A stretch of DNA of 64,000 bases from an uncultured virus (IMG/VR IMGVR_UViG_3300045284_000309) (IMGVR_UViG_3300045284_000309), one strand, 5' to 3'; shown: positions 1 to 64,000, counted from the first letter of the stretch. Numbers and translations are program-made. The notes: generated from the letters alone by a model not told the origin.

Positions 1-2998
1 CCGACCTGTCCTGAGGAGCGAGACAATGGAATTTCACTCCGTTCTCGTCCACCATCTCAAACAGCCACGTCTTCACGCTTGCCCACGGTGACGCCTTCAG
101 TTCCAGTTTGATGCCTTCCGGAATCCAGAACAGCTTCGACACGGAGACGCGACCTACGACCGGCTCCAATCCTTTTTCACGGCCGAGATGCCGCCAGCCC
201 GAGTCTGAGCTTCGTGCCCCTGTGTGCTTCGGCTTGACATCCTTGAAAATCTGTGGCTTCTTCAGCGTGAATCCCAGCGCCTGAAATTGGACTAGATCCG
301 CGTCGTCGGCCCGCTTGACACCGAAGGACTCGAAAGCGCCAAGCTTGCCGAGATTCTCAAGCCGAGTCACATTGAGCGAGCGCCGTGTCGTACGATCTCT
401 GAAATCATCAAGCGACTGGAACGGCTGTCCCTGGAGGATCTCGTTGACGGCCACCGGGCCAAGACCATGAATCTTGCCAAGCCCGACACGAATCCCTCCG
501 GTCTTGTCGATACCGAATCCAGCACCGGATCGGTTGATATCCGGAAGAATGAAATTGTACCCTTCTGCCCTGGCTGCTGCGAGGTACTGCGAGCGCTCCG
601 GGTAGTGATCGAGCAGGGAGGCGAAGAATTCTGCCGGGTAGTGACACTTGAGATAGGCGATCTTGCCCGCTAGGACGCCATAGGAGGCCGCGTGTGCCCG
701 GTTGAAGCTGTAGCCACTGAATTCCCTCACCTGATCCCAGAAGACGCCTGCATGCGCTCCTACGGTCTTCTGGGCGGCTTTCATGAAATCAGGCTCGATA
801 GCCGAGAATGCTTCTTTGGCCCCACGGCCGACACCTTTGGCTTTTTTGATCGCCTGGTAGATGTCATCGACCCCGCCATCATCCATTCCGACCGCGTAGC
901 CAATTTCCATCGCCTGTTCCTGGAAGATCGGTAGCCCTTCTGTCGGCCCCAGGATCTTCTCCAGCATCGGATGCGGGTACGTGACAATTTCACCGCCCTG
1001 TCTCCGCTGGACGTAGAGCTTCGCCTTGTTGCTCCGTGTGTTGGCAGGACGGTAGAGGGCGGCGGCGAGAACAAGATCGTAGACATTTTCAGCTTCCATC
1101 TCTACGATCCCTTTGCGGACTTCCTTGCCCTGAAGCGTGTGAATTCCATCGACCTTCCCGGCTCGGATCATCTCGTACGTCGGCTCATCATCCGTGGTCA
1201 GGTCGAAGAATTCCAGCGGCGACTTCCCGATCATTTTCAAAACATCCGCCGCGATATCGAGCGCAGTGAGTCGAAGGAAATCCCCCTTGACCAGGCCGAA
1301 GTCTTCCAGCGACTTGTAATCGAACTGAGTCACGAGCTTGCCGCTCGACGCGATTAGGTACATGGGCACCCATTGCTTGAGTGGCCGCTCCGGTGTGCCG
1401 AAGGCCCAGGCACAAGCATGCTGTGAAATCGACTTGATGGAATCGAAGATCGAAGACGTGATCTCATATAGCTCCGGGTAGTCTTGGCTGAGAGCTTGAA
1501 ATACGTCCGTATCCTCGTCAACCATTCCCGAGTCGATCATCTGCGGGAGAAGCTTTGAAATCTCGTCCTGCTCCTCCTTGTCGATTCCAAGGGCCGACGC
1601 AGCCATGCGGAAGGCAGAGCGATTGGCGGCTGTTCCGTAATTACAGATCTGCTCGACCTGGCCCTTGCCGACCAGTGGCTCCATGTGCTCCTGCACGATC
1701 CGCATGAAATCCTCGTACCGGCTCGGCTGGATATCGATGTCGATGTCCGGGAGCTTCTTCCTGGCCGGATTGAAAAAGCGCGAGAAGATCAGATCGTGCT
1801 CGATGGGATCTATCTCATGGATTTTCAGGCAGTAGCAGAGGAGGCTCGATGCCGCCGACCCTCGCGTCCAAGTCAGTATCCCCATCTTCCTCGCCGCGAT
1901 GATGAAATCTGAAATCAGCAACAGGTAGTGAGCGAAGTCACCGATGGCCTCGATCTCGTACTCAAAACGCTCGCGAGCTTTTTCACCGTGCTTGTCGATC
2001 ATCTCCTTGAGCCGCGCCTTGCTGCGCATCCTCATCCGCTTCATCGGATCGTCGTAGCCCGAGAACGGAATCGAGTAACTGAAATTGTCCAGCGGGTCGA
2101 GAACGATGTTTACCTCGTTGACGATCTCCTCGATGTTCGTCAGAGCTTCGGCCGGTGCATCGATCTTCTCCATGCTGCGCATGTAATTTCCGAAGTAGAG
2201 ATAGTCCTTGAGATACGACGCCGAGAGAGTCTCGCTTGATCCAGTGAAATCGTCTCTCGATCTCCAGGCGGACGCCTTCATCGCTATATGCGCCTTGCGG
2301 TCTGAAATCGTCTGCATGTGCGAGTCGTTCGTAAGGATCAGCGGCGTGTCTGTCACCTTGGCCAGTCCGATCAACTGGCCACGGACAACTTCCTCGCGCT
2401 CGATCATTTCACAGTACGCAGGAAACGACTCGTCATAGCACTTCGGGATCAGGTGATTCTGGATCTCGACGTAGAAATTTGGGAACACAGATTTCATTGC
2501 CTCGATGTAGCCCACGGCCAGGTTGGGCATGTCCCGTAGAAGGACTTGATTCAACTCTGAGCCGAGACAGCCGGAAAGGACGACGTTATGGTGCATTGGC
2601 CAGGGTGCGATCTCCAGCATCCTAAAAACGGAGATACGCGGCTTCCTGTAGAAATTCTCCCGCTGCATTGCCTCGGTGCTCCAGGCCACGAGATTCTCAT
2701 AGCCCTCACGAGAGAGCGCCAGCACGGTCAGGTGAAATTGCTCAGGCATCAGGTCTTTGCCTTTTTCACCCATCGCCCAATCGGGAGTGACGTAAAGCTC
2801 ACAGCCGAGAATGGGCTTGATCTTTTCAGCCTTCGCCGCCTTGTAGAGCGCAGGAGCGGACATGAGCGTCCCGTGCTCTGTCAACGAGACGGCCGACCAT
2901 TTCAGATCCTTGGCCCGCTGCACGACGGCCTTGGGCGAACCGAACCCGTCCAAAAGTGAAAAAGTGGAATGGCAATGAAGGTCAATGTAATTTGTCAT
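1..2998 (-). CDS. dnaE: DNA polymerase III alpha subunit (3' end outside window)
   Basis: Translated by hand from ATG at 2998: MTNYIDLHCHSTFSLLDG (PHP domain), TRGSAASSLLCY, catalytic PDIDID, ALYRP, IFQEQ, GYSFNRAHAASY, HhH GLGP. No stop in the segments read; absent from the ORF track, as expected for an ORF running off the edge. Confidence 0.97.
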   Translation of the reverse strand, partial: MTNYIDLHCHSTFSLLDGFGSPKAVVQRAKDLKWSAVSLTEHGTLMSAPALYKAAKAEKIKPILGCELYVTPDWAMGEKGKDLMPEQFHLTVLALSREGYENLVAWSTEAMQRENFYRKPRISVFRMLEIAPWPMHHNVVLSGCLGSELNQVLLRDMPNLAVGYIEAMKSVFPNFYVEIQNHLIPKCYDESFPAYCEMIEREEVVRGQLIGLAKVTDTPLILTNDSHMQTISDRKAHIAMKASAWRSRDDFTGSSETLSASYLKDYLYFGNYMRSMEKIDAPAEALTNIEEIVNEVNIVLDPLDNFSYSIPFSGYDDPMKRMRMRSKARLKEMIDKHGEKARERFEYEIEAIGDFAHYLLLISDFIIAARKMGILTWTRGSAASSLLCYCLKIHEIDPIEHDLIFSRFFNPARKKLPDIDIDIQPSRYEDFMRIVQEHMEPLVGKGQVEQICNYGTAANRSAFRMAASALGIDKEEQDEISKLLPQMIDSGMVDEDTDVFQALSQDYPELYEITSSIFDSIKSISQHACAWAFGTPERPLKQWVPMYLIASSGKLVTQFDYKSLEDFGLVKGDFLRLTALDIAADVLKMIGKSPLEFFDLTTDDEPTYEMIRAGKVDGIHTLQGKEVRKGIVEMEAENVYDLVLAAALYRPANTRSNKAKLYVQRRQGGEIVTYPHPMLEKILGPTEGLPIFQEQAMEIGYAVGMDDGGVDDIYQAIKKAKGVGRGAKEAFSAIEPDFMKAAQKTVGAHAGVFWDQVREFSGYSFNRAHAASYGVLAGKIAYLKCHYPAEFFASLLDHYPERSQYLAAARAEGYNFILPDINRSGAGFGIDKTGGIRVGLGKIHGLGPVAVNEILQGQPFQSLDDFRDRTTRRSLNVTRLENLGKLGAFESFGVKRADDADLVQFQALGFTLKKPQIFKDVKPKHTGARSSDSGWRHLGREKGLEPVVGRVSVSKLFWIPEGIKLELKASPWASVKTWLFEMVDENGVKFHCLAPQDRS

Positions 2999-3389
2999 AC
3001 CACTCCGGATCATCAAGCTCGTTATGGCACAGCCTACACAATTCAGCAAAATCACTGAAGTCAGTCAGGTAGACGCCTGAAATATTGGCCCACTCAGTTT
3101 CCCCTTCACGGCCGCATGCAGAGCATTGACCCGACTTTTCATGGTGCTTCCAGAGCCGCCAGTGAAGGCCCATGTAGCCAACGTCCTCTCCCTTCCAGTG
3201 AAAACTTTTCTCGCCACTATGCGCCGCGCCTATTTTCTCTCGTACCTCTGGCAAGCGAGCATGGTGACCACGTACGAACCGAAGTGGTTTTCCTTTTACC
3301 CACCCCTTTGACCTGTTCGTACGTGGTGCCACCGGAGCAGCTTCACCACACCCGCATTCACACAATTTCAGGTCAATCAGGCTGGACAT
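2982..3389 (-). CDS. Free-standing HNH-like endonuclease (CECGCG / NUMOD3-like family), copy 1
   Basis: CECGCG, REKIGAAHSG, CSACG..EWANISG..ELCRLCH; paralogous to 4768-5118 and 29359-29763. Confidence 0.75.
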   Translation of the reverse strand: MSSLIDLKLCECGCGEAAPVAPRTNRSKGWVKGKPLRFVRGHHARLPEVREKIGAAHSGEKSFHWKGEDVGYMGLHWRLWKHHEKSGQCSACGREGETEWANISGVYLTDFSDFAELCRLCHNELDDPEWYDKLH

Positions 3390-3573
3390 ATTCCAACCTT
3401 ACATGCCGCCAGTAACCTTCGATCACCCAGCGACTTTCAATTTCATAGTCAATCATTCTCAGGGCTTCCTCCACACGCCCCGATGCGAGAGTGGCACGGA
3501 TTGCTTCCAAGCTCCGAACTGACCCCGGCTTGGGCACGACAATCCCTCCAATGATCCGCGCCGATCTCGGCAT
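3373..3573 (-). CDS. Hypothetical protein
   Basis: 66-aa ORF abutting its neighbours in the operon. Confidence 0.6.
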   Translation of the reverse strand: MPRSARIIGGIVVPKPGSVRSLEAIRATLASGRVEEALRMIDYEIESRWVIEGYWRHVRLEYVQPD

Positions 3574-3891: not shown

Positions 3892-4148
3892 GCCGCGATC
3901 CTCAGTATTCCTTCGGCCTTGGCAATTTCCCATTCGACAATCGCCCTGGCCCACTCGATTTTCATTGCGCCGGTAAGCGCATCACGAGTGCGGGTGCCCT
4001 TCTGCTGCGCTACGAGAGTGCAATAGCCCGCAGAAATATGTACTGGAAAGACTGTAAATCCCCAATCCTCACTGAGGATTTTGCACCGTGCCCGCAGACC
4101 GGGCATGTCATCCTTCCACGTCCCAGATGAACGCAGTCTATCCTTCAT
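3888..4148 (-). CDS. Hypothetical protein
   Basis: ATGA-coupled to the HU gene. Confidence 0.6.
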   Translation of the reverse strand: MKDRLRSSGTWKDDMPGLRARCKILSEDWGFTVFPVHISAGYCTLVAQQKGTRTRDALTGAMKIEWARAIVEWEIAKAEGILRIAA

Positions 4149-4486
4149 GCCGCGATCCTCTTGCGCAGCCGCTGCACCGTGGGCGCTGCTTCCTTGAGCG
4201 CCTTGGTCGCAGTCAATTTCACACGGACGGAGGCAGGCTTCGCAGAAACCTCTACCTCCTCGCCTGTCGCCGGATTGCGACCCATGCGCTTCTTCGTGGC
4301 CTTTTTCAGAGCAGGCTCGATGATCAAGCCCGCGAGCTTCGTGCGCTTACAGTCGCCCAGGTTGGAAACTACGACATCGTTGAGCGCAATCAACATGACG
4401 CGGATTTCAGACTTGGTGTAGCCCGTCTCCCAGGCGAGCTTATCGACAAGCTCCGTCTGGGTCACCATCGGTAGCGCCATTTTCAT
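4145..4486 (-). CDS. hup: HU/IHF-family DNA-binding protein
   Basis: TQTELVDKLA...RMGRNPATGEEVEVSAKP...KALKEA HU signature. Confidence 0.93.
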   Translation of the reverse strand: MKMALPMVTQTELVDKLAWETGYTKSEIRVMLIALNDVVVSNLGDCKRTKLAGLIIEPALKKATKKRMGRNPATGEEVEVSAKPASVRVKLTATKALKEAAPTVQRLRKRIAA

Positions 4487-5124: not shown

Positions 5125-6240
5125 CTACTTCTTGGTAGTGCGAGGCCGACCGCGAGAGGCTTTCGGCTTGATGGCTGTAATTATCCAGTCGCCCTCGTCA
5201 TCCTTCGCTGCATCGACCACGACAATTACACCCTTCTTGATCTTGTCGTAGTCAACCTCGATGCCGTCACCGAGCCACATCTTCACCGAGCCGTCGTCGT
5301 TCTTGAGGTTGAAGATTTCATCGCGGCGCTGGATGGAGACGATCTCGTAGACGCCAGCCGCGATTTCATCGGCCTCGTCTTCGTCTTCCTCGTCTTCATC
5401 CTCGTCTTCGTCTTCATCCTCGTCTTCGTCTTCGTCGGTGATTTCATCCTCGTCGTCGTCTTCGTCCTCGTCGTCCTCGTCGTCGTCTTCGTCGTCCTCG
5501 ACTTCTGCCTCGTCCTCGATTTCATCCTCGTCGTCTTCGTCCTCGTCGTCGTCTTCGTCTTCCTCGACGGCGGGCTTGCCACGGCGGGTTTTCGTCTTGG
5601 TCGCGGTCGCAGTCGTCGTCTCCTCGTCTTCATCGTCGTCCTCGTCTTCCAGGAGATCGATGGCCTTGAGGCGCTCCAACTGGCGGCGAAGCTGCGAGAG
5701 GACAAGCCCCTCCAGACCCTTGCCCTGGAGAATTTCCTTCTCCAGCCTCGCGAGCAGAGAGGAAGTCTGCTTCGCGGTCAGCTTCTTGTCCGGTAGCACC
5801 TTGACCTTGTAATTCCCACGGTCGTCCAGGCGCTTGATCCGGATTTTCTTGCCGAGAACACCATCCTCCTCCTCGGACTCGTCTGTAATGTCCTCGATGG
5901 TGCCGTAGTTCATCGTGAAAAGCTTGATCTGCTCCTTCACGTCTGCCGCCTCCGGGAAATACCATGCGGTCAACGCACGAGTGGAGGGGTTGTCGTTCGC
6001 GGCGCAGAACGGGCAATCTTCACCCGCACACGGCACGTACGTATTTCCCTGCTGATCCCAATGGTCGTAATACTCCAGGTAGCCGGGATTGTTTTCAGCC
6101 TCGGGGTCAGGCTCGAAAAGCGCCACGCCCCGGAAGCTCTCGTCCTGCTTGAGCCGCATGAAAACTGACGGCCGCTTGCGATCTTCCTTGGATTTCACCA
6201 TGCGAATCCGCATGGACGGCTGCTTACGCCTTGTAGCCAA
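5125..6240 (-). CDS. ssDNA-binding protein-like (Zn-binding) with long acidic tract and C-terminal beta domain
   Basis: Probable TTG start at 6240 after GAAGGAG; H..CAGEDCPFC motif; long D/E tract; lies next to primase and helicase. Confidence 0.65.
   Translation of the reverse strand: MATRRKQPSMRIRMVKSKEDRKRPSVFMRLKQDESFRGVALFEPDPEAENNPGYLEYYDHWDQQGNTYVPCAGEDCPFCAANDNPSTRALTAWYFPEAADVKEQIKLFTMNYGTIEDITDESEEEDGVLGKKIRIKRLDDRGNYKVKVLPDKKLTAKQTSSLLARLEKEILQGKGLEGLVLSQLRRQLERLKAIDLLEDEDDDEDEETTTATATKTKTRRGKPAVEEDEDDDEDEDDEDEIEDEAEVEDDEDDDEDDEDEDDDEDEITDEDEDEDEDEDEDEDEEDEDEADEIAAGVYEIVSIQRRDEIFNLKNDDGSVKMWLGDGIEVDYDKIKKGVIVVVDAAKDDEGDWIITAIKPKASRGRPRTTKK
5368..5650. repeat. Low-complexity GAC/GAG/GAA codon run encoding poly-Asp/Glu
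   Basis: tcgtcttcgtcctcg iterations on the + strand. Confidence 0.9.
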
Positions 6241-7324
6241 ACTTACTCCTTCCTTCGTCGGTCGAAACGTACGGACTGCGAGCCAGTGTATCATCCCTGG
6301 GCCGATTCCGCAACCCTGATTTTGCAGGCTTCTTTCGGATCTTCTCGCGCCAGAGAACCGCAGGTATAGCACGTTGTACGGCCCTGTGCGCCTGTCTGCC
6401 GGTCAACTCGGCCGGATCTGACTTCCCGGCAGGGTAGCGGCAGATGAACAGCGGATACCGTCTAAGCTTGTTTGATGCTATTTCAATGTTTTTGATCCCG
6501 CTGAGATCCTTGTCGTACATGAGGTACACACGTCGCGGGCGCAAGCTGGAGAGAATCCTCACCTGGGCATCCGAGATACCCGTTCCAAGGATCCCGGCGA
6601 CCGGAATACCGTGCTGGCTGATCGCGATTACATCGAGCGATCCCTCCACGAGCACGATATCCTGCCCCATGCGAAGCTTGTCGGCCCCGAAAAGAATCTC
6701 GGTTTTCACTGCACCCTCGGAATAGAGATATTTCGGATGCTGCGACGGCAAGACTGCTCGCCTGATTAGAAACTTGAGCTTGCCGTTTTCATCATGGGCA
6801 GGAATGATGATCCGCTTCTCCTCAGAATCCCAACCAAATCCCCAGAGTGAAATACTGTTGCTGGAGATTCCACGGCCCGCTAGATACTCCTGGCCCACTT
6901 GCGGCAGGTATGTGTCGTAATCGAGGGAAATGTGCTTCTTCTTCCGTGGCACACGAGCCATCTCACGCCGTGAAAATCCGGTAGCACCTTTGAGGATGAC
7001 CTTCTTGGCCTCGCGGTGCGCTCGATTCGTACGGCGCACCCGCTCCTGCCGGTTGGGAGACTTGTCTACCTGAAATTTGTCGTAGATCCCTTCCACAACG
7101 CAGATGGCATGTTCGTACGTCCCTGAGATCCCGCAGTCTGAAAAACAATGCACGAGCGGATGCCGAAGGTTGACCTGAAACGCGGGCGAGCGATAGTTGT
7201 CATGGGCAGGGTGCGGACAATGCACGAGTGGCGCAAACTCCTCATCCCTGCCCATGTGCGTCGGAAACTCCACGTAGCTCGACCAAAACGCTACCGGGTC
7301 GATGTTGCGGCCGTGAAAGTTCAC
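6224..7324 (-). CDS. dnaG: DNA primase (Zn finger + TOPRIM)
   Basis: CPHPAH..HCFSDCG, PKYLYS, LVEGSLD, YDKD..G, KSDPAE. Confidence 0.92.
   Translation of the reverse strand: MNFHGRNIDPVAFWSSYVEFPTHMGRDEEFAPLVHCPHPAHDNYRSPAFQVNLRHPLVHCFSDCGISGTYEHAICVVEGIYDKFQVDKSPNRQERVRRTNRAHREAKKVILKGATGFSRREMARVPRKKKHISLDYDTYLPQVGQEYLAGRGISSNSISLWGFGWDSEEKRIIIPAHDENGKLKFLIRRAVLPSQHPKYLYSEGAVKTEILFGADKLRMGQDIVLVEGSLDVIAISQHGIPVAGILGTGISDAQVRILSSLRPRRVYLMYDKDLSGIKNIEIASNKLRRYPLFICRYPAGKSDPAELTGRQAHRAVQRAIPAVLWREKIRKKPAKSGLRNRPRDDTLARSPYVSTDEGRSKFGYKA
6285..6313 (-). promoter_or_regulatory. Promoter for the SSB-like gene with CCCAGGGATGA spacer box
   Basis: TTGCGG-17 nt-TACACT; spacer nearly identical to the one at 60881-60897. 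Confidence 0.65.
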
Positions 7325-30483: not shown

Positions 30484-33400
30484 TCACCAGGCTACCGAAA
30501 GAAGCTCTGCTTTTTCATTTTTTTCAGCCGAAAGTAATTCGGCGTCAGTCCCTGCTGAAAGTAGCTCTGCACTCTCGACGTGCTCTGCCGACAGAAGTCT
30601 TGAAATTTCGGACTTTGCCGAAAGCAATGCGGTCGGGTCTAGGCTGGCGCTGAATAGTATCGCAATTCGCACACCGCTGTCCGTCTTCAGCACCGCAGCT
30701 ATCTCGTAGGTAGTTCCTCTGTCCTGGACGAGTAGCCTTATAGGAAGAATATTTTCAGAGGCAGTTCCTGTATCGCTCGTATATAGGAGAAAGAGATAGC
30801 TAGCACCCTCAGAGATGCTCCCGAAATCGCTCCCAGCGAGCTTGACGGCCAGGAACTGGATCTCAGAGGCTGTGGAGGTATCGCTGGAAGCCCCTGAGAA
30901 GCGCTGTGAGGCGCTCTCACCCCCTGATCCTTGGTCAGACACCCTCTGAGCGATCTGAGCGCTCTCAGAGGCTCCCAGAGCGTCGGTCGAGGAGAGGCCC
31001 ATTCCGGCCAAAAATCCGGAATCGGTAATAGTCCCAGAGTCTGTAGAGGAAACGACCGCTTTGAGCGCAGCGGATTCCGTTGTGACCGAGTTGGAATCCG
31101 ACGATGAAATTATGTTTATCTGGGCCGTCGTGCCGTTCTCTGTAGCCGTCCCATTCGTGTCCGTTGTCGAGACGAGTGCCTTCGGAGTCGCCGTCTCGCT
31201 CGCTCCACCGGAATCCGACCCTGAAATTTGATTGGTCGATACGATAGAGCCGTTCTCTGTAGCCGTCCCATTTGAGTCAGACGTAGAGACGAACACTCGC
31301 GGAGTTGCAGTGTCAGAAGCAGAGCCTGTGTCCGACCCTGAAATCTGGTTGACCGCAGCGTTTGAGGCATTTTCAATGATCGCCCCATCGCTATCGAAAG
31401 CGGGTATGGCGGCAACAAGCGCCGACGCCTCGGTAGTCGTACCGTTCGCATCAGATCCGGCAATCTGGTTTGTTGTAACCAGAGTTGTAGATTCTGTAAT
31501 TGTGCCATTTGTGTCGCTGCTTGAAATCTGCGCAACAGGAGTGGCACTCTCCGTAGACGAACCATTTGTATCCGACCCGGAAACCTGAAGGAACGTAGCA
31601 GTCGATCCAAATTCAGTGGTCGTCCCGTTGGATTCAGAGGCTGAAATTTTGGCCACATTTGCAGCAGCCTCCGAATCCGTGCCCACATCGCTGGATGGAA
31701 TTTGCGCAGTGACCGTAGCGCCAGCCCCGACCTGAATACTGCCGCCGTTCCAGTTGTCGCCAGTCGAGTTGCCGTTCATCCGGACGCCCGGAGAGCCGCC
31801 AGAAGGGACAGATGCATCGCTAATGGCGGTCAGTCCTGTGACCGGATTTCCATTCAGCTTGACAGTGATCGAATTACCGGTAACTTCCAGGCGCAGAACG
31901 TCGGTCGAGGCAGGCTGAGTTGTCGGGACGCTGCTCGCTAGTTGCGAAAGAGCGCCACTTGCTACACGCTTGTAAACCTGAATAACCGGGCTACCAGCAT
32001 TTCCAAACCAACGAGCATGGTAGAAATCGCTGCCATTGCTCGTCATCCGAACTGTCACGCCGACAACATCGCTGGCGGTGGTGCCTAAGAAGCTCGGACT
32101 TATTTCAGCAAACTGATCGTTGCCAAACGTCCCTACCCAGGCCGCGCTCGCAGGCCCGACGGATGCAGTTACCGTGTTCGTTGAAACAACCAGCGAGTTT
32201 TCACCGGCTGACCAGTTCGGCCCGAGAGCACCGTTAGCTCTGTTGAAATTGTCGGTAGCTACACTACCGCCACCGCCGCCATCACTCCCTGTTCCGGAAT
32301 CGGCGGAGGAAATTGGGCTAGCAACGGCAGCAATTTCCGTTGAGGCTGTGGCGCTGTCCGTTCCAGAAACAATCGCTTTGACAGTTGGAGTCTCTGTGCT
32401 CGTGCCAGAGTCGGAGACGCTTGTCGTCGTCTGAAAAGTTGCTGCTTCAGTCAGTGATCCTGAAAAATCACTCGCTGAAAGAGCATAAGTAAAAGAAGCC
32501 GATTCGGTTGTTGTCCCATTTACATCAGAACCAGAAATAGGTGTCAGTGTCGAGACGCTTGCGCTCTCTGTAATTGTCCCATTCGCGTCTGATACGGGTA
32601 TGAGAGAACCAACAGTCCCAGTTTCCGTTTCATTGATCGGACTCGTGTCAATGAGAGATACATTCGGGTTCGCGGATTCAGTAATTGCCCCATTCTGATC
32701 CGTCCCGGAAACTTTTACAACAACTGAAGCTGATTCCGTGACCGTGCCATTTACATCGGCACCTGGAACAGAAGCAATAGCATTCGCACTCTCGATCTCG
32801 TTGATCGGACTCGTGTCAGCGAGCGCCACCGCAAGCGAAACCGCCTCAATTTCATTTATCGGACTTGTGTCAACAAGCGATACTTTCGTGCTTGTGTTTT
32901 CGGTAACCGTGCCATTGTCCGAAGATGAAACAAGAACAGGAGGAAAAGAAACAGTTGCGTTCTCCGTGAGTCCTGGAAATGGTGAGCCAGTTGAAAGTAG
33001 CTGGTAAGTCGAGACACTAGCCGGAATCGCCGCATATGTCGCAAACCTATTGGGCAGAGCCGTATACGTACCAGGATCAGGTTCAACGACAAGTAGTTGA
33101 ACCTTTACATCGACAGAAGCATTTTCAGCAATCGTCCCTGAATCAGTTCCTGAAATCAGACCAACGGTTGTGGATGTCTCAATTTCATTTATCGGACTCG
33201 TATCGGCTATTTGAACCGCCATCGCGGTTGCCTCAGTAACCGCCCCGCTCGTATCTGTGCCTGAAATTGGAGTACCGGCGGCAACGACGACCGAGGCCGT
33301 CTCGCCCCCCGCTGCCACCACATACGTACCGCCGCCGAAGTCGTCGAACGAGTCGAGAGAAGAAGCGCCGAGAGAAACGCCGATGTACCCCGCCGCTGAG

Positions 33401-34611
33401 TAGGTCGAATCAGTCCTTGTGGTGATTACGGCCCACGCACCGTTCGTATATCCCCAAGCACTGATCGTGTTGCCGACCACCGAGAGGCCGATCTTCGTCG
33501 TGTTCGCCGGGATCTGGAATGAACCACCACCGATGGTGGTAACAGCGTCGTTCGTGATCGACTGGATGAACCCGGCAGACATGCCTTGAGCCTGAAATAA
33601 GTAACCGGAGACGTTCGACGCACCGGGGTTCTGCACACGAGCAAACAATGTGGGAGCTATGTTTCCGGTGACAACAGTCGCGTAGGCTTCGCAATCGGGG
33701 CCGAAGCTCGACTGATTCCACCAGGCGGTCGAAGTCACACTACCGGCAACCATCGCGTTGCCGGTGATCACTGGTGCTGTCGCCGCACTTGGGCGAAGTC
33801 CTCCCGTCCAGTTCGCGCCGAGTGCTCCATTCGCCCTGTTGAAATTGTCAAGGACGCCCGTGGACGGGAACGCCCCACCACCAATAGGAACGCCACCGGA
33901 GTCAGAGTCAACCGCCACGACTTTCGTGATCGAGGCCGACTCGGTTGTAGTCCCATTCGAGTCGGTGCCCGAGACAAGTGTGTTCGCCACAAAGTTGGGA
34001 GTGAGAAGTACGGAACCGGCAGGGCCGGTTGATCCAGTCCTGATGACAACATCGCCGCTATTGCTACCGCTTGCTGTTGTAATCTCCCAGGCGATGACAA
34101 AGAACAGATACTCGTTGTTCAATGTGATTGACGCGCCGGGATTCCAGTTCACGGAAGCGCCTATATCAGTTGTCGTCGAGATAGAAGAGTTTATGCCGCC
34201 GACAACAGTTGATGCCGTTAGTTCAGTCGCACTTGCACCGCTCGCGTTCACGCTCTTGAATACGCGCATCCTGAAACGCCCTGCCTGAGCCGACGCCGTT
34301 GTTGCTCTTATGGCAAAGGAAAATGACCATGCCAACGCATTGTCAAAGGTTCCCGTCACCGGAGCAGGCGTCTTGAACGCATTGGCAGTTGTGCCAGTCA
34401 GGAACGATGCAGGCTTGGGTGTCGTCGTCTGTGAGCTAAACGATCCTGATGCCTGCTTCGTACCCGCATCAAACTCACATGAGTTGCCTGATGCGATTTT
34501 GGCAACTGTCCAGCCATCGGCGCGTGAAGCAGCCGTCTGAGCCACACCATCAACAAGTGCAGCGAAGTTGCCGTCAGCACCCGAAGCGACATAATAGGTT
34601 TTTTGAGCCAT
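30484..34611 (-). CDS. Large Ser/Thr-rich repetitive virion protein with two lectin-like modules
   Basis: Many ~20-aa (V/I)SG(T/S)DxNGxxTExA repeats; two DNFNRANGALG.NW domains. Confidence 0.8.
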   Translation of the reverse strand: MAQKTYYVASGADGNFAALVDGVAQTAASRADGWTVAKIASGNSCEFDAGTKQASGSFSSQTTTPKPASFLTGTTANAFKTPAPVTGTFDNALAWSFSFAIRATTASAQAGRFRMRVFKSVNASGASATELTASTVVGGINSSISTTTDIGASVNWNPGASITLNNEYLFFVIAWEITTASGSNSGDVVIRTGSTGPAGSVLLTPNFVANTLVSGTDSNGTTTESASITKVVAVDSDSGGVPIGGGAFPSTGVLDNFNRANGALGANWTGGLRPSAATAPVITGNAMVAGSVTSTAWWNQSSFGPDCEAYATVVTGNIAPTLFARVQNPGASNVSGYLFQAQGMSAGFIQSITNDAVTTIGGGSFQIPANTTKIGLSVVGNTISAWGYTNGAWAVITTRTDSTYSAAGYIGVSLGASSLDSFDDFGGGTYVVAAGGETASVVVAAGTPISGTDTSGAVTEATAMAVQIADTSPINEIETSTTVGLISGTDSGTIAENASVDVKVQLLVVEPDPGTYTALPNRFATYAAIPASVSTYQLLSTGSPFPGLTENATVSFPPVLVSSSDNGTVTENTSTKVSLVDTSPINEIEAVSLAVALADTSPINEIESANAIASVPGADVNGTVTESASVVVKVSGTDQNGAITESANPNVSLIDTSPINETETGTVGSLIPVSDANGTITESASVSTLTPISGSDVNGTTTESASFTYALSASDFSGSLTEAATFQTTTSVSDSGTSTETPTVKAIVSGTDSATASTEIAAVASPISSADSGTGSDGGGGGSVATDNFNRANGALGPNWSAGENSLVVSTNTVTASVGPASAAWVGTFGNDQFAEISPSFLGTTASDVVGVTVRMTSNGSDFYHARWFGNAGSPVIQVYKRVASGALSQLASSVPTTQPASTDVLRLEVTGNSITVKLNGNPVTGLTAISDASVPSGGSPGVRMNGNSTGDNWNGGSIQVGAGATVTAQIPSSDVGTDSEAAANVAKISASESNGTTTEFGSTATFLQVSGSDTNGSSTESATPVAQISSSDTNGTITESTTLVTTNQIAGSDANGTTTEASALVAAIPAFDSDGAIIENASNAAVNQISGSDTGSASDTATPRVFVSTSDSNGTATENGSIVSTNQISGSDSGGASETATPKALVSTTDTNGTATENGTTAQINIISSSDSNSVTTESAALKAVVSSTDSGTITDSGFLAGMGLSSTDALGASESAQIAQRVSDQGSGGESASQRFSGASSDTSTASEIQFLAVKLAGSDFGSISEGASYLFLLYTSDTGTASENILPIRLLVQDRGTTYEIAAVLKTDSGVRIAILFSASLDPTALLSAKSEISRLLSAEHVESAELLSAGTDAELLSAEKNEKAELLSVAW

Positions 34612-49061: not shown

Positions 49062-49930
49062 GGTAGCAAAAGGGTCAAATCCCAGATTTTTTCCCCAAAA
49101 ACAATTTCCTCGGATGTAATTCTAAATAGACCCAGGGTTCCAGTGTAATTGCAAATAGTCCCTGGGCCTCGGTTATGAAAATACGGTGTTCATAAGTGCC
49201 CCGCTGAACGAGCCGCCGGTACATCTCGTGAAATTCACATTCTGATAACATTTTTTTGGCTCAACCATGCGGTTGTAAAGACGAAATTCATGATTCTTTA
49301 CAATTTCATTACGACCAAAGTGCCTGCAAATCGATGGTTTCGGTCGGAGGACGGGATTTCAACACGGGGATTGCCAGTGCGTTACCGGGAATGAAAACAC
49401 CCGCTCTGGGAAGGGTGAAATTCGAGGGTTCTGGACGGGGTTTCCAGAGGGTGTTGCCAGTGATGAAATTGGTAAGTGTCCTAGGGTCGTAACCCTGATG
49501 TTTCCTAGGGATTCAGGTAGGGATTTCGGGGGATTGCCCGGAGAGGTGAGACTACGTTTCCCGATTTCAGGGTTCAGGAGATTTCACTACGGCCGTCCTA
49601 GGGGTTCCCATAGGGTCGCAGAGGGTTCTATCAAGTCTTCCGGCCCGGTAGGTTTCGATGAAATCTAGGGGGGATTTCAGGGGTTCTGGCGCATGGATAG
49701 ACGGTAACGACCCTAGGCTACTTTCAGGGGTTCGGCGCCGATGAAATCTAGCCTAGTTGCCGACTGGGGAAACAGGGGTTCTAGGACGGTGAAATCCGGT
49801 TATCGTCCTACGGTCGTTTCCAGATACCGGATCCGTAGGGGGGATGAAATTCGGAAACCCATCGGGGGATACCGGCCGGAATCTTCGCGCATGGAAAACA
49901 CGGGGAAGACTTGACACGGTACAATGCAGC
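49062..49930. other. Long non-coding divergent region with short imperfect repeats
   Basis: No credible ORF; TTTCAGGGGTTC x2, GATGAAATCTAG x2, several CCTAGGG. Confidence 0.6.
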
Positions 49931-49957: not shown

Positions 49958-50078
49958 CTTTGAAAACTCAGGTAGCGAATCCGGGCGAAACCCCGCCTGT
50001 TGACCACGGCCGAAAGTAGGGGGTTACTAACCCCCATTTGAACCGGCTGATGCGCGCTATCTGACTGACCTTTGAAAA
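49958..50078 (+). ncRNA. Structured leader RNA between two boxA-like CTTTGAAAA motifs
   Basis: Closing stem TCAGGTAGCG (49968-77) / CGCTATCTGA (50055-64); internal GGGGGTT/AACCCCC hairpin. Confidence 0.55.
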
Positions 50079-50089
50079 TTACGAATAGA

Positions 50090-51463
50090 CCTGAAATCCT
50101 GCCCTAGCGTTTCATTGAATCCCCCTACGGCCGGAACGATCCAGTTCCCCCGAATCCATCCGGATCCGGGTTTCCTAGATCCATCCGACAAAAAAGGTGG
50201 TTACATGAAAACGTACGGCAGAAACACTCACCAGGGGTTCATCGCCGAACAATGCGAAAGTGGCAAGTCTCAATCGGAGGCTTTCGCCACACTTGAACCG
50301 CTGGTTCTGGCTCAGATTGAGCCGATGATTTTCACGCGAAACCCTGATCGTTCTATGGGGGAATCGCATCGCATGCCGAAGCCGATGGCGCAGCAATTGC
50401 TAGACCTTCGCAACGCTATCGGCCGGATCTATTCCGCGATTGAGCGGGATAGGGCCGGAACGGGTTCTACCCGCCAGACTCGGACGATTGTTGAAACCGT
50501 GGAAACGGCCGAAACTGAAATCGTCGAATCACGGCCGGTAGCGTCAGGAAAGCGCCGGATCGAGACTGAACTGGAAAAGATGGAACGTCGTCTAGATGAA
50601 ATCTCCAGGTTCTGTCAGTCTCGCAACGAAACGGATCCGATCGATGAAATTGGAATGCGGCCGTATGAAGCGGCAGGCAGACTGATTCCCCGTGGTGTTC
50701 CGGCCGATGCGATCCTATCGGCTATCTCGATTCACTGGTCTAGAGATGCCCGGCAAGATGCGGGTATCGCAGACTTCGATTTCACTGCGTTGTCCAGGCG
50801 GTTCATGGATGAGCAAAACTGCGAATCCTACTGGCGCAATGAACGTGGCCAGACTGAACCGCTACACGAGATGTTCGGCTACGTGCTAACGCTTGCGCAA
50901 GCTCGCCAGCCGATCTATCTCTACGGAATCAAAGGTACGGGGAAATCCCATCTTGCGAGACAGCTTGCAACGTACCTAGACCTGCCGTACGGGGAAACCC
51001 CGCTATCGGCTGGCGCAAGCCGTGGCGACCTGCTAGGCAGGCTTACGGCAAGCTCTGAACGGCCGTTCATCCCGGCGAAATTCACGCAATGCTACTCAGG
51101 TGGCGGCGTGTTCAATTTCGAGGAAATGGACGCGGCTCTAGCCGAAATGATTATCGTCCTGAATAACGCATTGGCCGGTGATTATTTCGAGAATTCCATG
51201 TCCGGGGAAGCGCTCAATAAGAGCGAGAATTTCATCCCCGTGGCAACGGCCAATACCCTCGCAATGGGGGCGAATTCAAAGTACATCCGCGAGCGTTTGG
51301 ACGCGGCAACTTTGGACAGATGGAACCCCGGCCGTGTCGAAGTGAAATTCGACAAAAAACTCGCGAAGCACATGCTTTACAAGCATAGTGGCGGAGTGAA
51401 AAACAGCTAGATCATTGCGGCTGTAGGGGGATTCAATAAAACGCTAGTAAGCGGGATTTCAGG
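50090..51463 (+). repeat. Long imperfect inverted repeat (50090-50146 / 51405-51463) enclosing the AAA+ gene
   Basis: CCTGAAATCCTGCCCTAGCGTTTCATTGAATCCCCCTACGGCCG versus the reverse complement of CGGCTGTAGGGGGATTCAATAAAACGCTAGTAAGCGGGATTTCAGG. Confidence 0.9.
50205..51410 (+). CDS. MoxR/CbbQ/CobS-like AAA+ ATPase
   Basis: GIKGTGKS, FNFEEMD, LNNAL, ATANT, LDAATLDR; AAGGTGG RBS before ATG 50205. Confidence 0.9.
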   Translation: MKTYGRNTHQGFIAEQCESGKSQSEAFATLEPLVLAQIEPMIFTRNPDRSMGESHRMPKPMAQQLLDLRNAIGRIYSAIERDRAGTGSTRQTRTIVETVETAETEIVESRPVASGKRRIETELEKMERRLDEISRFCQSRNETDPIDEIGMRPYEAAGRLIPRGVPADAILSAISIHWSRDARQDAGIADFDFTALSRRFMDEQNCESYWRNERGQTEPLHEMFGYVLTLAQARQPIYLYGIKGTGKSHLARQLATYLDLPYGETPLSAGASRGDLLGRLTASSERPFIPAKFTQCYSGGGVFNFEEMDAALAEMIIVLNNALAGDYFENSMSGEALNKSENFIPVATANTLAMGANSKYIRERLDAATLDRWNPGRVEVKFDKKLAKHMLYKHSGGVKNS

Positions 51464-52423
51464 CTGAATTACACTGGATTGGGAACCCCTTCCGACTAGA
51501 AGGGATTTTCCAATGACTAAGAGCAATGAGAGCTACTTTCAGATCGATTGGTTCGATTACAAAAAGATCTTGAAATCGACCGTCCTAGACGGTAAGGCTC
51601 CGACACTGAATAACGCAAACACGACGCGGAGTTTCGCAACTCATGTTGCGGATTCCGGTAGCTGGCGCGGCTATTCAGATGGGCAATTGAAGCGGTGGAT
51701 TTCAGAGGGTTACACTCCCCCTGAAATGGTCGGTGGTTTGAGTAACCTCATCCCCCCGATGCGTGAAAAGAGTCGCACGATTTGGAACGAAGATGGCGAT
51801 GAATTTCATGTTGACCGCGCGATGAGTGGAACGGACAATTTCATGTCCTCTCAGTCTCGCCGGGAGGTTATCCCCGGTCTAAAGATTGAGGCCGGAATCA
51901 TGTTTAGTTCGGCCACGAATCACACTGTCGTCAACAATTACACTATCTGGCTTTGCAAGGTATTGTTCTCACTCGAACAAAGTGGAATTGATACTCAGCT
52001 TACGCTCGATTTCCCGTCATGGGAAAGTGTAAATGACTCGTCGCGGAAACGTGCCGGAACGTCAGGCGCGACCCTATATCACTCAGTAGTCAGAGTGAAA
52101 AAAGAGGGTGAGATTTCCGATTTCAAGTCATGGTCGGCGATGGTATCCCCGGCAGCGCTGCGCAACTTCGGTTTCGGGGCTATCTGCCTACATGCGAATG
52201 AAATAAATGGAACCCCTAGCGGTTCGATGGGTAGGGGGGTTCCGGAACGTCACGAATGGAAACTTGTATGGAATGAGGAGAGGCGAGTTTTGATCGTTGA
52301 AAACGCCTACACTTCTTCATCGTTTCCGGAATCCAAAATGACGGCCGACTTGAAAGCCGTCATGCAAAAGGTTAGCGGCAAGACTCAGTAATTTCATCGG
52401 GGTTTCCATCCAGTGTAATTCGG
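51464..52423 (+). repeat. Inverted repeat (51464-51489 / 52399-52423) enclosing the partner gene
   Basis: CTGAATTACACTGGATTGGGAACCCC / GGGGTTTCCATCCAGTGTAATTCGG: 25 pairs including 2 G-U, plus 1 bulge. Confidence 0.9.
51513..52391 (+). CDS. AAA+ partner protein (vWA/CobT-like, divergent)
   Basis: Follows the MoxR-like ATPase; GDEFHVDRAMSG, LEQSGI, VKK, P...R..GF pattern. Confidence 0.6.
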   Translation: MTKSNESYFQIDWFDYKKILKSTVLDGKAPTLNNANTTRSFATHVADSGSWRGYSDGQLKRWISEGYTPPEMVGGLSNLIPPMREKSRTIWNEDGDEFHVDRAMSGTDNFMSSQSRREVIPGLKIEAGIMFSSATNHTVVNNYTIWLCKVLFSLEQSGIDTQLTLDFPSWESVNDSSRKRAGTSGATLYHSVVRVKKEGEISDFKSWSAMVSPAALRNFGFGAICLHANEINGTPSGSMGRGVPERHEWKLVWNEERRVLIVENAYTSSSFPESKMTADLKAVMQKVSGKTQ

Positions 52424-52441
52424 ATCTATCTTCAAGATTTC

Positions 52442-52477
52442 AGGGCGGCTCTCGCGAGAGGGTCGCCCTTTTTTTTC
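52442..52477 (+). terminator. Intrinsic terminator
   Basis: AGGGCGGCTCTC-GCGA-GAGGGTCGCCCT followed by a T run. Confidence 0.9.
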
Positions 52478-52500
52478 ACGATTTCACGAATTACCTTCCG

Positions 52501-52524
52501 CCCGGTGCCAGCCGGGTTTTTTTT
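52501..52524 (+). terminator. Second tandem terminator
   Basis: CCCGG..CCGGG followed by T8. Confidence 0.7.
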
Positions 52525-53078
52525 GTGCTTTCATGTTGTCAGAACGGGCAATTACCAATTACAGGATCCTGTTGCCAAGCCTGGCGATTATCGATTTCAA
52601 GGATCGAATGGGAAACCGATTTCAGGGTGGAATCCGTTTTCAATCCAAAGTGAAATGTTCGCATGTCGGTGCTCGTGAAATTTCACAATCGATTCGTCGC
52701 GGGTTGTCTGGCAATGAAATCCTGGTTATTCTGGGCCGGTGGGCGGGAGTTGGTGGGCCTCGTGGGGAAGCCGTGAAATCGCTTCTACCGTGCTCAGGCT
52801 CGTGGCCAGGTGGGAACCCTCACCAGACGGCCGGAAGCCGTTAGACGGGCTTAGAGAGGCTTGCAGCCATGCGGGTTTGCGAAGCACTTGCCCCTGTGAG
52901 GCTCTGTAAGCCGTTCTAAGAGGCTGGGTTGGCCGGATGACCTGGGAGTCGCATAAGGTGGTCAGAGGCGCTTAGAGAGGCTTACAGGGGCTTGAAAAAG
53001 GTGGGCGGCATGAGCGCTGGCGTCCGGCGTGAAACTCGGCGTGGAAAGGTGCCGCACTCGTTTTGATAGTTGGGCGCG

Positions 53079-60775: not shown

Positions 60776-60868
60776 GCTACCCGCCCCGCTCTCAGGAATC
60801 GAACCTGAGCCTCCACCGTATGTTTCTGGCGGCGCTCTACCTAGCTGAGCTAGAGCGGAGCGGGTAGC
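60776..60868 (-). ncRNA. tRNA-like RNA with aberrant 10-nt anticodon loop and acceptor stem extended to 16 bp
   Basis: TCCGCTC-TA-GCTC AGCTAGGTA GAGC-G-CCGCC AGAAACATAC GGTGG-AGGC-TCAGG TTCGATT CCTGA-GAGCGGG; no CCA. Confidence 0.8.
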
Positions 60869-61788: not shown

Positions 61789-61796
61789 TAGGAATT

Positions 61797-62636
61797 TCAC
61801 CGGCGAGCCGTCGTCTTCTTCTTGACGGGCTTGCTGGCCGTGCTCCTGGCCGTCGTCGTCGTGGCCTTCGGCTTGTTCTTCGATCCAGGCGGACGACCGC
61901 GCCGCTTGGGTGCCGCTGCGGGCTTCTGTGCGGCCTTCTGCGGCTTTGCCTTCTGCGGGGTGGTCTTCCGGGTAGTCGAGCGCTTCGCCGTGCTCCTGGC
62001 GGCTCCTGTGGCTCCGGACTTGCGGTACGTGCCCTGAGTGCCGTACTCGGCGCGGTTGGTGGACTTCTCGTGCTGGCCCGTCTTCATCGCGAAATCCCAG
62101 GCCGTCCGTGAAATCCGGTACTGGAGCATCGTCTCAGCAGACGCTTGAGTGCGCTTGCTGCCGTCCTGCATCTTCCGGCCGACGAAATCCCAGATCTTCG
62201 GAAGCAGTGCCGTGAAAACCTTGGCCCGGTTCCCACGGTATTTCCGAAGGGACTTGACGATCAGGTCGGGCGGCGATCCGACGCGGGCGTTCCAACCGTC
62301 CGTGACGTTGAAATCCACGTCCTTGAGCATCTCACGGCCGGACTCGTCAGCGGTCGAGCGCTTCGCCTTGCCCGTCGTCGCGGACTTTGCGGCAGGCTTC
62401 GACTTGACGGCCGTCTTCGTTGCGGCCTTCGGAGGGCGACCCCGGCGAGCAGGCGTCTTGGTTGCCGTGCGAGTCTTCGTCGCGGGCTTCCGAGTCGTCT
62501 TGGTCTTGGTCGATCCACCGTTCATGAATTGCACGATGAGCGCCTGAAGCTCGTCAGCGCTTGTTGCGCTGCGAATGTCACTGGCCGGGATACCCAGCCC
62601 CTTCGCGCTCTGTCTCAGTTGTCCGAGAGTTGGCAT
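61797..62636 (-). CDS. Histone H1/HMGA-like basic protein with two AT-hook motifs
   Basis: K/A/T/P-rich flanks; ARRGRPPK and KRRGRPPGSKNK; globular middle region. Confidence 0.8.
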   Translation of the reverse strand: MPTLGQLRQSAKGLGIPASDIRSATSADELQALIVQFMNGGSTKTKTTRKPATKTRTATKTPARRGRPPKAATKTAVKSKPAAKSATTGKAKRSTADESGREMLKDVDFNVTDGWNARVGSPPDLIVKSLRKYRGNRAKVFTALLPKIWDFVGRKMQDGSKRTQASAETMLQYRISRTAWDFAMKTGQHEKSTNRAEYGTQGTYRKSGATGAARSTAKRSTTRKTTPQKAKPQKAAQKPAAAPKRRGRPPGSKNKPKATTTTARSTASKPVKKKTTARR

Positions 62637-63081: not shown

Positions 63082-63082
63082 G

Positions 63083-63409
63083 CTATTCATCCTTGGGTGG
63101 CCGTCCGACTCGGTGGTTTCGGATGATCTCCACAATTTCATCCCTTTGGGCAGGACTCCAAAGACGGATTGCCAGCGTTCCACGTTGGACTCTCTGGGCC
63201 TCTGGAATCCTGCCCGCTCTTTCAAGCTTGCGCAACCAAGACGGATCGCAGCCGACTTCACGCGACATTTCAGCAAGGGTCAGATAGTCCTTGTACCGCT
63301 TTGGCTTGAAATATGTGATGTCTCTGGGCATTGTTCCACCTGGCTTGATGTGTGTGTTGGGAATGGCCGGTCTGCTTCGGCGTTTCTTTGTCGGCCTCCC
63401 CATTTTCAC
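63083..63409 (-). CDS. MerR-like HTH DNA-binding protein
   Basis: LTLAEMSREVGCDPSWLRKLERAGRIP..RLWS. Confidence 0.8.
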   Translation of the reverse strand: MKMGRPTKKRRSRPAIPNTHIKPGGTMPRDITYFKPKRYKDYLTLAEMSREVGCDPSWLRKLERAGRIPEAQRVQRGTLAIRLWSPAQRDEIVEIIRNHRVGRPPKDE

Positions 63410-63927
63410 TTCTTTCCATAGACGATCAGGAATGGTGCTTTTTCCTTCTCGTAGAAGGCAGGCGCGATCTCCTCTGCCGTCAACAGTCCTTCTCTGACAA
63501 CGCGATCAAGCGCGTCCTGGTCAACGGTACGCTTCGTGATCCGGTTCCAGATTTCAGAGCGTTCCGTCTTGTTCTTGAACTTCTGGCGCAGAATGAAAAG
63601 CAACGGAATCACACTGACCGGCGTGTTTGCATCAATGTCGTCACTCGATGCGATCCACGTTCCGCCATACTTGTCACGCCGCAGAAGCGCGTACGGCTCG
63701 CCCTGCCTTCCGTTGCCAAGATCGATTCTCGGAGTGTCTGTGTTCGCAGCCCAGGCCGTTGCCGCCTTTTTCATTTCAGCCGCGTCCTCCATCATCTCCG
63801 TGATCCCGTGCTCCTGCATCAGAGCCTGGACTTCCTCTTTCAGGTTTTCAGAACCGATGAGGGCTTCCCTGGCCTCCTCAACGTTCTTGACCTGAAATTG
63901 CCCGTTCTTCAGCCGCTTGAGTGCCAT
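63406..63927 (-). CDS. Hypothetical protein
   Basis: GGAGG RBS; 173 aa with helical N-terminus. Confidence 0.75.
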   Translation of the reverse strand: MALKRLKNGQFQVKNVEEAREALIGSENLKEEVQALMQEHGITEMMEDAAEMKKAATAWAANTDTPRIDLGNGRQGEPYALLRRDKYGGTWIASSDDIDANTPVSVIPLLFILRQKFKNKTERSEIWNRITKRTVDQDALDRVVREGLLTAEEIAPAFYEKEKAPFLIVYGKK

Positions 63928-64000
63928 GCTAGCTCGCTACCTCCACGGGCGTCTCGGTGTCCGCGATCATGCGGTCGATCACGTCCGCGTCAATTACGAT

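Follow-up and report, generated by a model that had tools for sequence, protein, structure and literature searches.

Short oligomers under selection throughout a genome are known in bacteria, where they comprise the uptake sequences, Chi and KOPS (FtsK-orienting polar sequences). The DNA uptake sequences and uptake signal sequences (DUS/USS) of Neisseriaceae and Pasteurellaceae are presented in two reports as genome-wide words whose dialects co-evolve with a protein receptor and which serve as a watermark of self DNA (PMC3630211, PMC3868556). Here we describe the hexamer TGAAAT and its complement ATTTCA in a 64,000-nucleotide stretch of DNA, hereafter the window, from an uncultured virus (IMG/VR IMGVR_UViG_3300045284_000309); the window covers the greater part of an uncultured tailed phage's genome. 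As with DUS/USS, the words are short, over-represented in and between genes and on both strands, and differ between lineages. However, DUS/USS are 9–12-mers of naturally competent bacterial chromosomes that are read by a pilus-associated receptor in uptake, whereas the phage word has 6–7 bases, occurs in a lytic-type tailed phage at a many-fold higher density (about one TGAAAT per 225 bp) and involves no uptake machinery. In the limited literature collection that was searched, no phage clade is described with a six-base word that saturates the genome inside and outside genes and changes in dialect.

Closer to phage biology, TF1 of phage SPO1 selectively binds phage over host DNA through the hydroxymethyluracil in SPO1 DNA. 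The window also encodes an HU-family protein, and TF1 is among its nearest solved sequences (E 1.4e-5); no modification genes were seen here, and discrimination would have to depend on word density. The stoperators of Cluster A mycobacteriophages are another case of many dispersed, asymmetric protein-binding sites inside phage genes. Those sites are 13–14 bp long, with a few dozen copies in each genome; they follow the direction of transcription and serve as binding sites for the immunity repressor, whereas the present phage, apparently lytic, carries hundreds of orientation-neutral sites of 6–7 bp. Known Chi sites are G-rich. Like the phage word they are short, asymmetric and over-represented, also in phages, but Chi is polar and reaches about 0.2/kb with an observed/expected ratio of about 2.3 (PMC3784561), as compared with a non-polar word at 4.5/kb. 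Finally, in T7-type primase sites, as in the phage word, a short invariant core precedes degenerate positions, and our phage has a zinc-finger primase of its own; the T7 pentamers, however, are enriched only 1.1–1.9-fold, while the phage word is enriched 17.7-fold over composition and displays no lagging-strand polarity.

The over-representation of TGAAAT/ATTTCA proved to be real and stronger than first noted. The original prediction, made from the sequence alone, relied on a hand count of 24 copies in the first 4 kb, which was exact (15 + 9), and on an estimated GC content of 57%, which was too high (measured, 55.1%). The whole window contains 158 copies of TGAAAT and 127 of ATTTCA, that is 285 sites with a mean gap of 225 bp, where base composition predicts about 20 on both strands together. 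The density persists along the entire stretch, as had been judged by eye, with 10–32 sites per 4 kb. Markov models predict 37.9 (order 1), 49.5 (order 2), 119 (order 3) and 258 (order 4) copies; the last value comes close to 285, since TGAAA and GAAAT, the pentamers on which it is built, already have an enrichment of about sixfold. No other hexamer of the window is as over-represented as TGAAAT, while the top hexamer of T7, taken for comparison, reaches only 3.1-fold. Among 76 bacterial loci from many phyla, a panel not known to include the host, the TGAAAT ratio is 1.5 at the median and nowhere exceeds 4.7, the median density is 0.2 sites/kb, and in no locus does the word rank within the top 25 hexamers. 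The related words TGAAAA, GAAATT and GTAATT, also named in the original prediction, are likewise enriched, as is TGTAAT. The wider family of TGAAAT, TGAAAA, TGTAAT and TGTAAA amounts to 589 sites (9.2/kb; mean gap, 109 bp).

Could the word be a by-product of codon, dicodon or amino-acid usage, combined with a general avoidance of TA, in a moderately GC-rich genome? TA-containing words are indeed strongly depleted (TAA/TTA, 386 vs 831), and the order-4 Markov expectation nearly absorbs the count. The latter model, however, merely restates the pentamer enrichment, and the codon controls tell against such an origin. In the approximately 55 kb of coding DNA, as delimited by our own approximate open reading frame (ORF) calls (77 ORFs, about 86% of the window), 226 copies were found, as compared with 53.5 ± 6.8 after within-gene shuffling of synonymous codons (z 25; 4.2-fold) and 25.7 ± 5.1 after shuffling of codon order (z 40; 8.8-fold). 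Nor does the excess depend on a single reading frame: each of the five possible classes (frames 1 and 2 in the sense orientation; 0, 1 and 2 in the antisense) is enriched 2.5–6.0-fold (z 8–19), sense frame 0 being impossible because TGA is a stop codon. The enrichment is strongest in unassigned or non-coding DNA, where 56 copies compare with 5.7 ± 2.3 after dinucleotide-preserving shuffling (z 22). Enrichment in five orientation/frame classes as well as in non-coding DNA makes an explanation by codon pairs untenable. Furthermore, the codons preferred by the phage overall (GAG, AAG, ATC and TTC) are the opposite of those that the word requires, and other lineages are enriched for a different word, as described below. 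An origin in usage is accordingly not supported, and we assign it next to no weight. The earlier suggestion that the motif forces AT-rich codons into GC-rich genes is instead borne out, since GAA makes up 66% of Glu codons after T against 25% after C, and AAA makes up 67% of Lys codons after TG. Certain dipeptides are also in excess, namely Glu-Ile (121 observed vs 61.9 expected; 1.95-fold), Asn-Phe (50 vs 27.8; 1.8-fold) and Ile-Ser (121 vs 78.6; 1.54-fold). Taken with the difference between the two shuffles, this skew indicates that the pressure shapes protein sequence too.

The base specificity of the word was profiled by comparing each single-base variant of TGAAAT with its own synonymous shuffles, which gave the following enrichments.

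Position 1: T 4.2x, G 1.7x, C 1.0x (CGAAAT), A 0.9x (AGAAAT)
Position 2: G only; TAAAAT 0.2x, TTAAAT 0
Position 3: A 4.2x, T 3.5x, G 2.1x, C 1.5x
Position 4: A 4.2x, C 1.3x, T 0.8x, G 0.6x
Position 5: A 4.2x, T 2.1x, C 0.7x, G 0.4x
Position 6: T 4.2x, A 3.9x, G 1.3x, C 0.9x

The resulting consensus is TG[A/T]A[A/t][T/A] followed by a pyrimidine, the next base being C or T at 235 of the 285 sites. Some one-off neighbours are depleted (TGAAGT, 0.4-fold; TGAGAT, 0.6-fold). Once the leading T is lost, GAAAT shows no enrichment, and the signal is therefore not simple clumping of A and T. In three genomes, no position beyond +1/+2 is conserved within ±20 bp of the sites, which means that no extended or bipartite context of the IHF type is present.

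The bias is not peculiar to this phage. The first 26 contigs found through the large terminase subunit (TerL; 58–100% identity, GC 47–63%) are all enriched, 7.6–29.9-fold, and carry 2.2–5.6 sites/kb regardless of GC. A profile scan yielded 46 further contigs, of which 43 have at least 47% TerL identity; TGAAAT is enriched at least 4.5-fold in 37 of these 43, and five of the six remaining ones are enriched for a sibling word.

L163: TGAAAA 21x
L165: TGACAA 18.8x
L145: TGAAAA 6.8x
L154: GAAATT 9.7x
L139 (21 kb, GC 57%, TerL identity 58–59%): TGAAAT 3.7x, top word GTAATT 5.8x, weak
L152 (4 kb, GC 36%, TerL identity 58–59%): TGAAAT 1.4x, no enrichment

The last two may represent lineages in which the signal has been lost or relaxed. 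The three contigs at 35% TerL identity have no bias (1.0–2.2-fold). Comparison with related phages, which the original prediction had proposed as a check, thus delineates a bias that is clade-wide down to about 47% TerL identity and is expressed in lineage-specific dialects. These are best seen in eight long genomes (observed counts/order-2 expectation).

Window and G003: TGAAAT 285/49 and 316/81, respectively, plus TGTAATT
G007 and G008: TGAAATT 206 each, plus TGTAATT
G002: TGAAAA(C) 264/39, above TGAAAT 171/25
G004: TGAAAA 322/33, plus TGACAA 113/30
G005: TGACAA 426/48, plus TGAAAA 162/26
G006: a mixture, with three words at once

Synonymous shuffles uphold the dialects (TGACAA in G005, 326 vs 53, z 38; TGAAAA in G004, 245 vs 45, z 40), and TGACAA is not enriched in G007 (0.9-fold) or G003 (1.3-fold). 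Whatever the dialect, the excess density is about 5–8 sites/kb in all eight long genomes, equivalent at the clade level to one word copy per 125–200 bases, counting both strands. A mosaic origin of the mixed dialects was rejected, since the word mix is homogeneous along G002, G004, G005 and G006.

Within genomes the sites are evenly dispersed. The density is 4.0, 4.1 and 5.1 sites per kb in genes whose orthologues occur in two relatives, in one of them or in neither, respectively, and even the HNH homing-endonuclease gene carries sites. The gap distribution is near-exponential with the short gaps missing: in each of the genomes tested (the window, G002 and G003), gaps below 20 bp are rarer than expected (33 vs 58 in G003), and gaps below 40 bp between TGAAAW sites (W, A or T) number 65 in the window against 117 ± 8 expected and 39 in G002 against 96. 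In the window, neither a preferred spacing of direct or inverted pairs nor a helical periodicity of the word was detected; AAA/TTT has a periodicity of about 10.1 bp. Strand polarity, or a switch of it, was not found in octants of the eight genomes, the sense:antisense ratio being 0.8–1.45.

The absence of polarity bears on the possibility that the sites are initiation sites for the phage primase.

6224..7324, minus strand: DnaG-type primase, Toprim domain (Pfam), with a CHC2-like zinc finger Cys/His pattern seen by eye in the translation

This enzyme would read the template 5′-WTTWCA-3′, with a cryptic 3′ A, and its primers would start with pppG-A/U-A-A; AT-rich sites would then be kept frequent in a GC-rich genome for efficient lagging-strand priming. 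The CHC2-type zinc finger is the template-sequence-reading module in DnaG/T7-type primases, and the primase is a core protein, present in all seven other long genomes. An invariant 5′ T-G followed by looser positions recalls the degenerate extended sites of T7 primase, and the family density resembles that of the three T7 primase pentamers together (320 in the 40 kb of T7). On the other hand, the bias towards the lagging-strand template that priming sites should display is missing from the eight genomes. In the T7 control the pentamers lie only 1.1–1.9-fold above composition, which argues that a primase can be sequence-specific without leaving a mark on the genome, and chance would already provide about one family site per kb per strand (shuffle means), which is above the need for Okazaki priming. 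Moreover, known primase trinucleotide cores are fixed, while the third position here is A or T within one genome, and neither short-range repulsion nor non-coding arrays would be predicted. Primase sites are thus, in our opinion, an unlikely explanation. Searches for the enzyme outside the clade were of little help: a scan with the single sequence found nothing, and a profile scan found clade members only, plus one unrelated phage (28% identity) that lacks the bias. In G006 (C1:31736-33670; L175) the primase match is split within a 670-amino-acid open frame by an insertion, which may be an intein or reflect a fusion.

Lack of polarity also bears on the idea that the sites are addressed to a host protein, either as Chi-like attenuators of a RecBCD/AddAB-type nuclease, protecting linear phage DNA and feeding phage RecA, or for the recruitment or titration of a host nucleoid protein, the dialects reflecting different hosts. 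The word is short and asymmetric like Chi, the relative G003 encodes RecA, and dialects spread over GC contents of 47–63% could track hosts. In addition, Chi is over-represented in phages without RecBCD inhibitors (PMC3784561). Yet Chi acts in one orientation, and the density found here is about 20 times the figure reported for Chi in phages (0.2/kb, observed/expected about 2.3; PMC3784561). The profile is degenerate at three positions, none of the 76 bacterial loci has TGAAAT in its top 25 hexamers, although the true host may lie outside this panel, and G006 uses three words at once. A host-encoded reader consequently appears quite unlikely to us.

Conservation provides a further line of evidence. 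Between orthologues at 50–65% amino-acid identity, motif hexamers are identical in 65 of 237 cases (27%), as compared with 9.7% for other hexamers and 11.7% for hexamers of equal A+T content; where the amino acids are conserved, the corresponding values are 60%, 28% and 42%, all these counts pooling several loci per gene and hence not being independent. Most sites are nevertheless not shared between relatives, which amounts to turnover while density is held. On a shorter time scale, comparison with the 97–99% identical G001 gave 1.29% substitutions in sites against 2.55% elsewhere (p 0.03; rank 10 of 181 words), and comparison with L002 gave 1.47% against 3.29% (p 0.09).

These figures can be set against a context-specific mutation or repair bias that, without selection, would convert near-cognate words into the motif, for instance sequence-specific mismatch repair, or primase mispriming with the favoured primer fixed into the DNA. 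Such a process would account for a density that is uniform over core, accessory and HNH homing-endonuclease genes, non-coding DNA and whole genomes, and for the depletion of TGAAGT (0.4-fold) and TGAGAT (0.6-fold). Very short patch repair in E. coli is a precedent for a repair-driven word bias. However, neighbour depletion is also forced by the design of the shuffles when synonymous codons are redistributed, independent mutation would not be expected to produce short-range repulsion, the substitution rate in sites is lower rather than merely equal, and the non-coding arrays and hotspots look functional. We know of no process that makes a six-base asymmetric word at 5–8 per kb. A mutational origin thus has, in our estimation, the same low standing as a host protein.

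A modification system had also been proposed as the reader in the original prediction. The words would in that case be targets of methylation or hypermodification by the phage, dense enough for the modified bases to protect the phage DNA against nucleases of the host. In being short (6 bp), asymmetric and variable between lineages, the words do resemble the specificities of Type IIS, Type III or BREX-type methyltransferases, and many early genes of the phage have no assigned function. Targets of modification are normally not enriched, however, and no methyltransferase, glycosyltransferase, TGT/DpdA-like or thymidylate-synthase-like family was recognised in Pfam scans of 75 window proteins, PHROGs scans of 49 (46 of them without a Pfam match) or scans of 21 proteins from the ends of G003, although novel enzymes are possible. 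This weakens the idea, which we consider improbable.

We favour instead selection for dispersed recognition sites of a co-evolving architectural or marking protein that binds duplex DNA, and put the probability of this reading at roughly 40%. A word that is orientation-neutral, base-specific, independent of GC in its density, conserved, self-avoiding, concentrated in conserved non-coding hotspots and variable between lineages is most simply explained by selection for protein recognition sites. The general form of the original prediction, in which selected sites coat the genome, is thus supported by the codon controls, the sharp profile, positional conservation, an approximately halved recent substitution rate, the repulsion between sites, the clade-wide density and the dialects; the readers that it put forward fare unevenly, as discussed below. 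According to this model, hexamers of the form TG[A/T][A/C]A[A/T] (in the window chiefly TGAAAT with C or T as the next base) would be maintained by selection as evenly dispersed sites on duplex phage DNA and would be read regardless of orientation by a sequence-specific protein. Co-evolution of the reader with its sites would explain the lineage dialects. A site every 125–200 bp would let the reader coat, bend or compact phage DNA, and such a density would mark this DNA off from other DNA, given the bacterial median of 0.2/kb. The denser non-coding arrays beside the AAA_5 operon may be high-affinity nucleation or regulatory regions.

The most likely readers would be one of two proteins encoded by the phage.

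4145..4486, minus strand: HU/TF1-family DNA-binding protein, 113 amino acids, Pfam Bac_DNA_binding (PF00216), E 2.5e-13
61797..62636, minus strand: H1-like basic protein, 279 amino acids

Both are core genes, which speaks in favour of the proposal, as do the uniform density over core and accessory genes and the syntenic non-coding hotspots. The HU-family protein was found in six of the seven other long genomes, the seventh contig ending before the region, and its nearest solved sequences are HU-type proteins, African swine fever virus pA104R and SPO1 TF1. HU, which the original prediction had listed among the possible readers, is thus present and core, and stays a candidate on this sequence-based evidence. 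The H1-like protein has a three-helix module at its N-terminus, tails rich in Lys, Thr and Ala, and a central helical domain that is conserved, and it is a core protein, present in all seven other long genomes; it has no Pfam or PHROG family, its Atlas matches are below 0.9 and its best Foldseek match in the PDB has an E-value of 3.5. The AT-hook character attributed to this protein holds for the window copy, which has two canonical RGRP cores, but not at the clade level: the cores are absent from the two orthologues examined, those of G002 and G003, and these genomes are biased all the same. Minor-groove reading by AT-hooks was accordingly rejected for the clade as a whole, since TGACAA is not an A/T tract, GAAAT without its leading T is not enriched and the hooks are not conserved in these two orthologues; specificity for the leading TG and the TGACAA dialect argue equally against A-tract bending. 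The H1-like orthologue of G006 (C1:11696-12463; L178) contains one in-frame TAG. Phylogenetic profiling does not discriminate between possible readers, the primase and the H1-like protein both being core.

A third DNA-binding protein was considered and set aside.

5125..6372, minus strand: probable gp32-like single-stranded-DNA-binding protein (SSB), a core replication-module protein of 415 amino acids with no family match

Its predicted fold comprises a Zn (Cys-cluster)/OB domain, a disordered Asp/Glu-rich linker of about 90 residues and a C-terminal OB-like barrel. Foldseek matches it to OB folds, with the cores of T4 gp32 and RB69 SSB aligned over about 210 columns (probability 0.93–0.96, E about 0.03), so that from the modelled structure it is most likely a gp32-like SSB, albeit of unusual architecture, rather than a reader of duplex sites.

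Several observations weigh against selection for protein recognition sites. L152 is without enrichment and L139 is only weakly enriched, the word mix along the window is mildly heterogeneous (p 0.014), and the repulsion below 40 bp is not significant in G003 (103 vs 111.5). Accessory genes and the HNH homing-endonuclease gene are as dense as the rest, which a fast mutational process would explain too. The recent-divergence signal is modest, and the comparisons with G001 and L002 are not independent since L002 overlaps the G001 region; the positional identity at conserved amino acids could arise by convergence under any force favouring the word. As for the reader, each of the two proteins is a candidate only because it belongs to the core and binds DNA. 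Most members of the HU family bind without sequence specificity, and the one encoded here scores nearer to HU-type proteins than to the sequence-specific IHF; the sites themselves lack the IHF-like context mentioned above. The central domain of the H1-like protein matches no known fold.

It is tempting to speculate, if more tentatively, that the phages of this soil clade label their DNA through its sequence rather than chemically, with the word being read by the HU/TF1-like or H1-like architectural protein of the phage. If so, phage DNA would be coated, compacted or privileged over host DNA, and word and reader would co-evolve into the dialects TGAAAT, TGAAAA and TGACAA, a viral counterpart of the uptake-sequence dialects, under a selection powerful enough to distort both the choice of codons and the use of dipeptides. 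Should the word be a binding site, it would offer a tractable system to study how a signal at the DNA level overrides codon and amino-acid preferences, how readers and sites co-evolve and how a virus may discriminate between its own and host DNA without base modification. In practical terms, the word is a signature for recognising and binning members of an uncultured clade.

Two non-coding regions stand out by their density of family sites.

49101..49860: non-coding, divergent region upstream of the plus-strand AAA_5 gene; 13 family sites per 600 bp, against a mean of 5.1
52251..52850: region downstream of the DUF7192 gene, among terminator-like hairpins; 15 family sites per 600 bp

The first is an array of degenerate units of the GATGAAATCTAG / GGGATTTCAGGGGTTC type, repeated about every 83 bp, and has syntenic counterparts in G002 and G003; Tandem Repeats Finder (TRF) reports no tandem array at 49–50 kb. 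The second has a syntenic counterpart in G002. Rfam gave no match in the window, leaving an explanation at the RNA level unsupported. Between the two lies the only plus-strand operon (50115-52391), whose products are an AAA_5 (MoxR/CobS-like) ATPase and a DUF7192 protein; four of the seven other long genomes also have this operon, and both its flanks are low-coding motif hotspots. At 49115-49166 and 50077-50091, repeated TGTAATT(C/G)(T/C)AAATAG(A/T)CCC units are located upstream of minus-strand, early-looking genes and are possibly promoters or operators. Beside the second hotspot, non-coding DNA at 52845-52990 contains at least three copies of a GGCTTAGAGAGGCTT(G/A)CAG-like unit that is unrelated to the TGAAAT family.

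The window has other compositional peculiarities. Words containing TA are avoided to an extreme degree, beyond codon usage, as seen from the TAA/TTA deficit given above, from CTTA/TAAG (54 vs 219 expected) and from TTA, which serves for only 9 of 1287 Leu codons despite a GC content of 55%. Two unrelated words are in excess, GAGCTT/AAGCTC (86 vs 36 expected) and CACGAG/CTCGTG (68 vs 29 expected).

Nearly all genes of the window lie on the minus strand. Those recognised in Pfam/PHROGs scans are the following.

Replication and DNA binding: Pol III alpha-type polymerase, HU-family protein, Toprim primase, DnaB-like helicase
Structure and packaging: baseplate and hub proteins with cell-wall hydrolase domains, major capsid protein, portal protein, small and large terminase subunits
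Other: AAA_5 ATPase, HIRAN protein, HNH endonuclease

Two collinear relatives, of 70 kb and 68 kb, are rated complete, so that the window falls short by only about 11 kb; the region beyond it, as read in the complete relative G003, encodes RecA, an SF2 helicase and small proteins. G002 had seemed to offer a natural experiment for want of Pol III alpha, but its contig merely ends short. The sequence or close relatives of it occur in soil metagenome contigs from 13 coded studies. Among cultured phages the best TerL identity is about 24%, with no close relative, and a TerL profile search for a host in a genome collection returned no relative. The matches of Pol III alpha are only 25–34% identical and come from many phyla, the best E-values belonging mostly to metagenome-assembled genomes of Actinomycetota.

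Two further loci deserve mention. At 60783-60859 (minus strand), ARAGORN predicts a tRNA-like gene to which it assigns no identity and whose anticodon has four bases (aaca); this may be a frameshift-suppressor-type or degenerate tRNA; it has no Rfam match at the gathering threshold. At 30484-34611 (minus strand), a protein of 1375 amino acids belongs to no Pfam or PHROG family, has no close cultured relative by megablast and is matched in part, at 31% identity, in G003. Its position would suit a tape measure or fibre gene, and its recurring ...GACCCTGAAAT... stretches suggest internal protein repeats.

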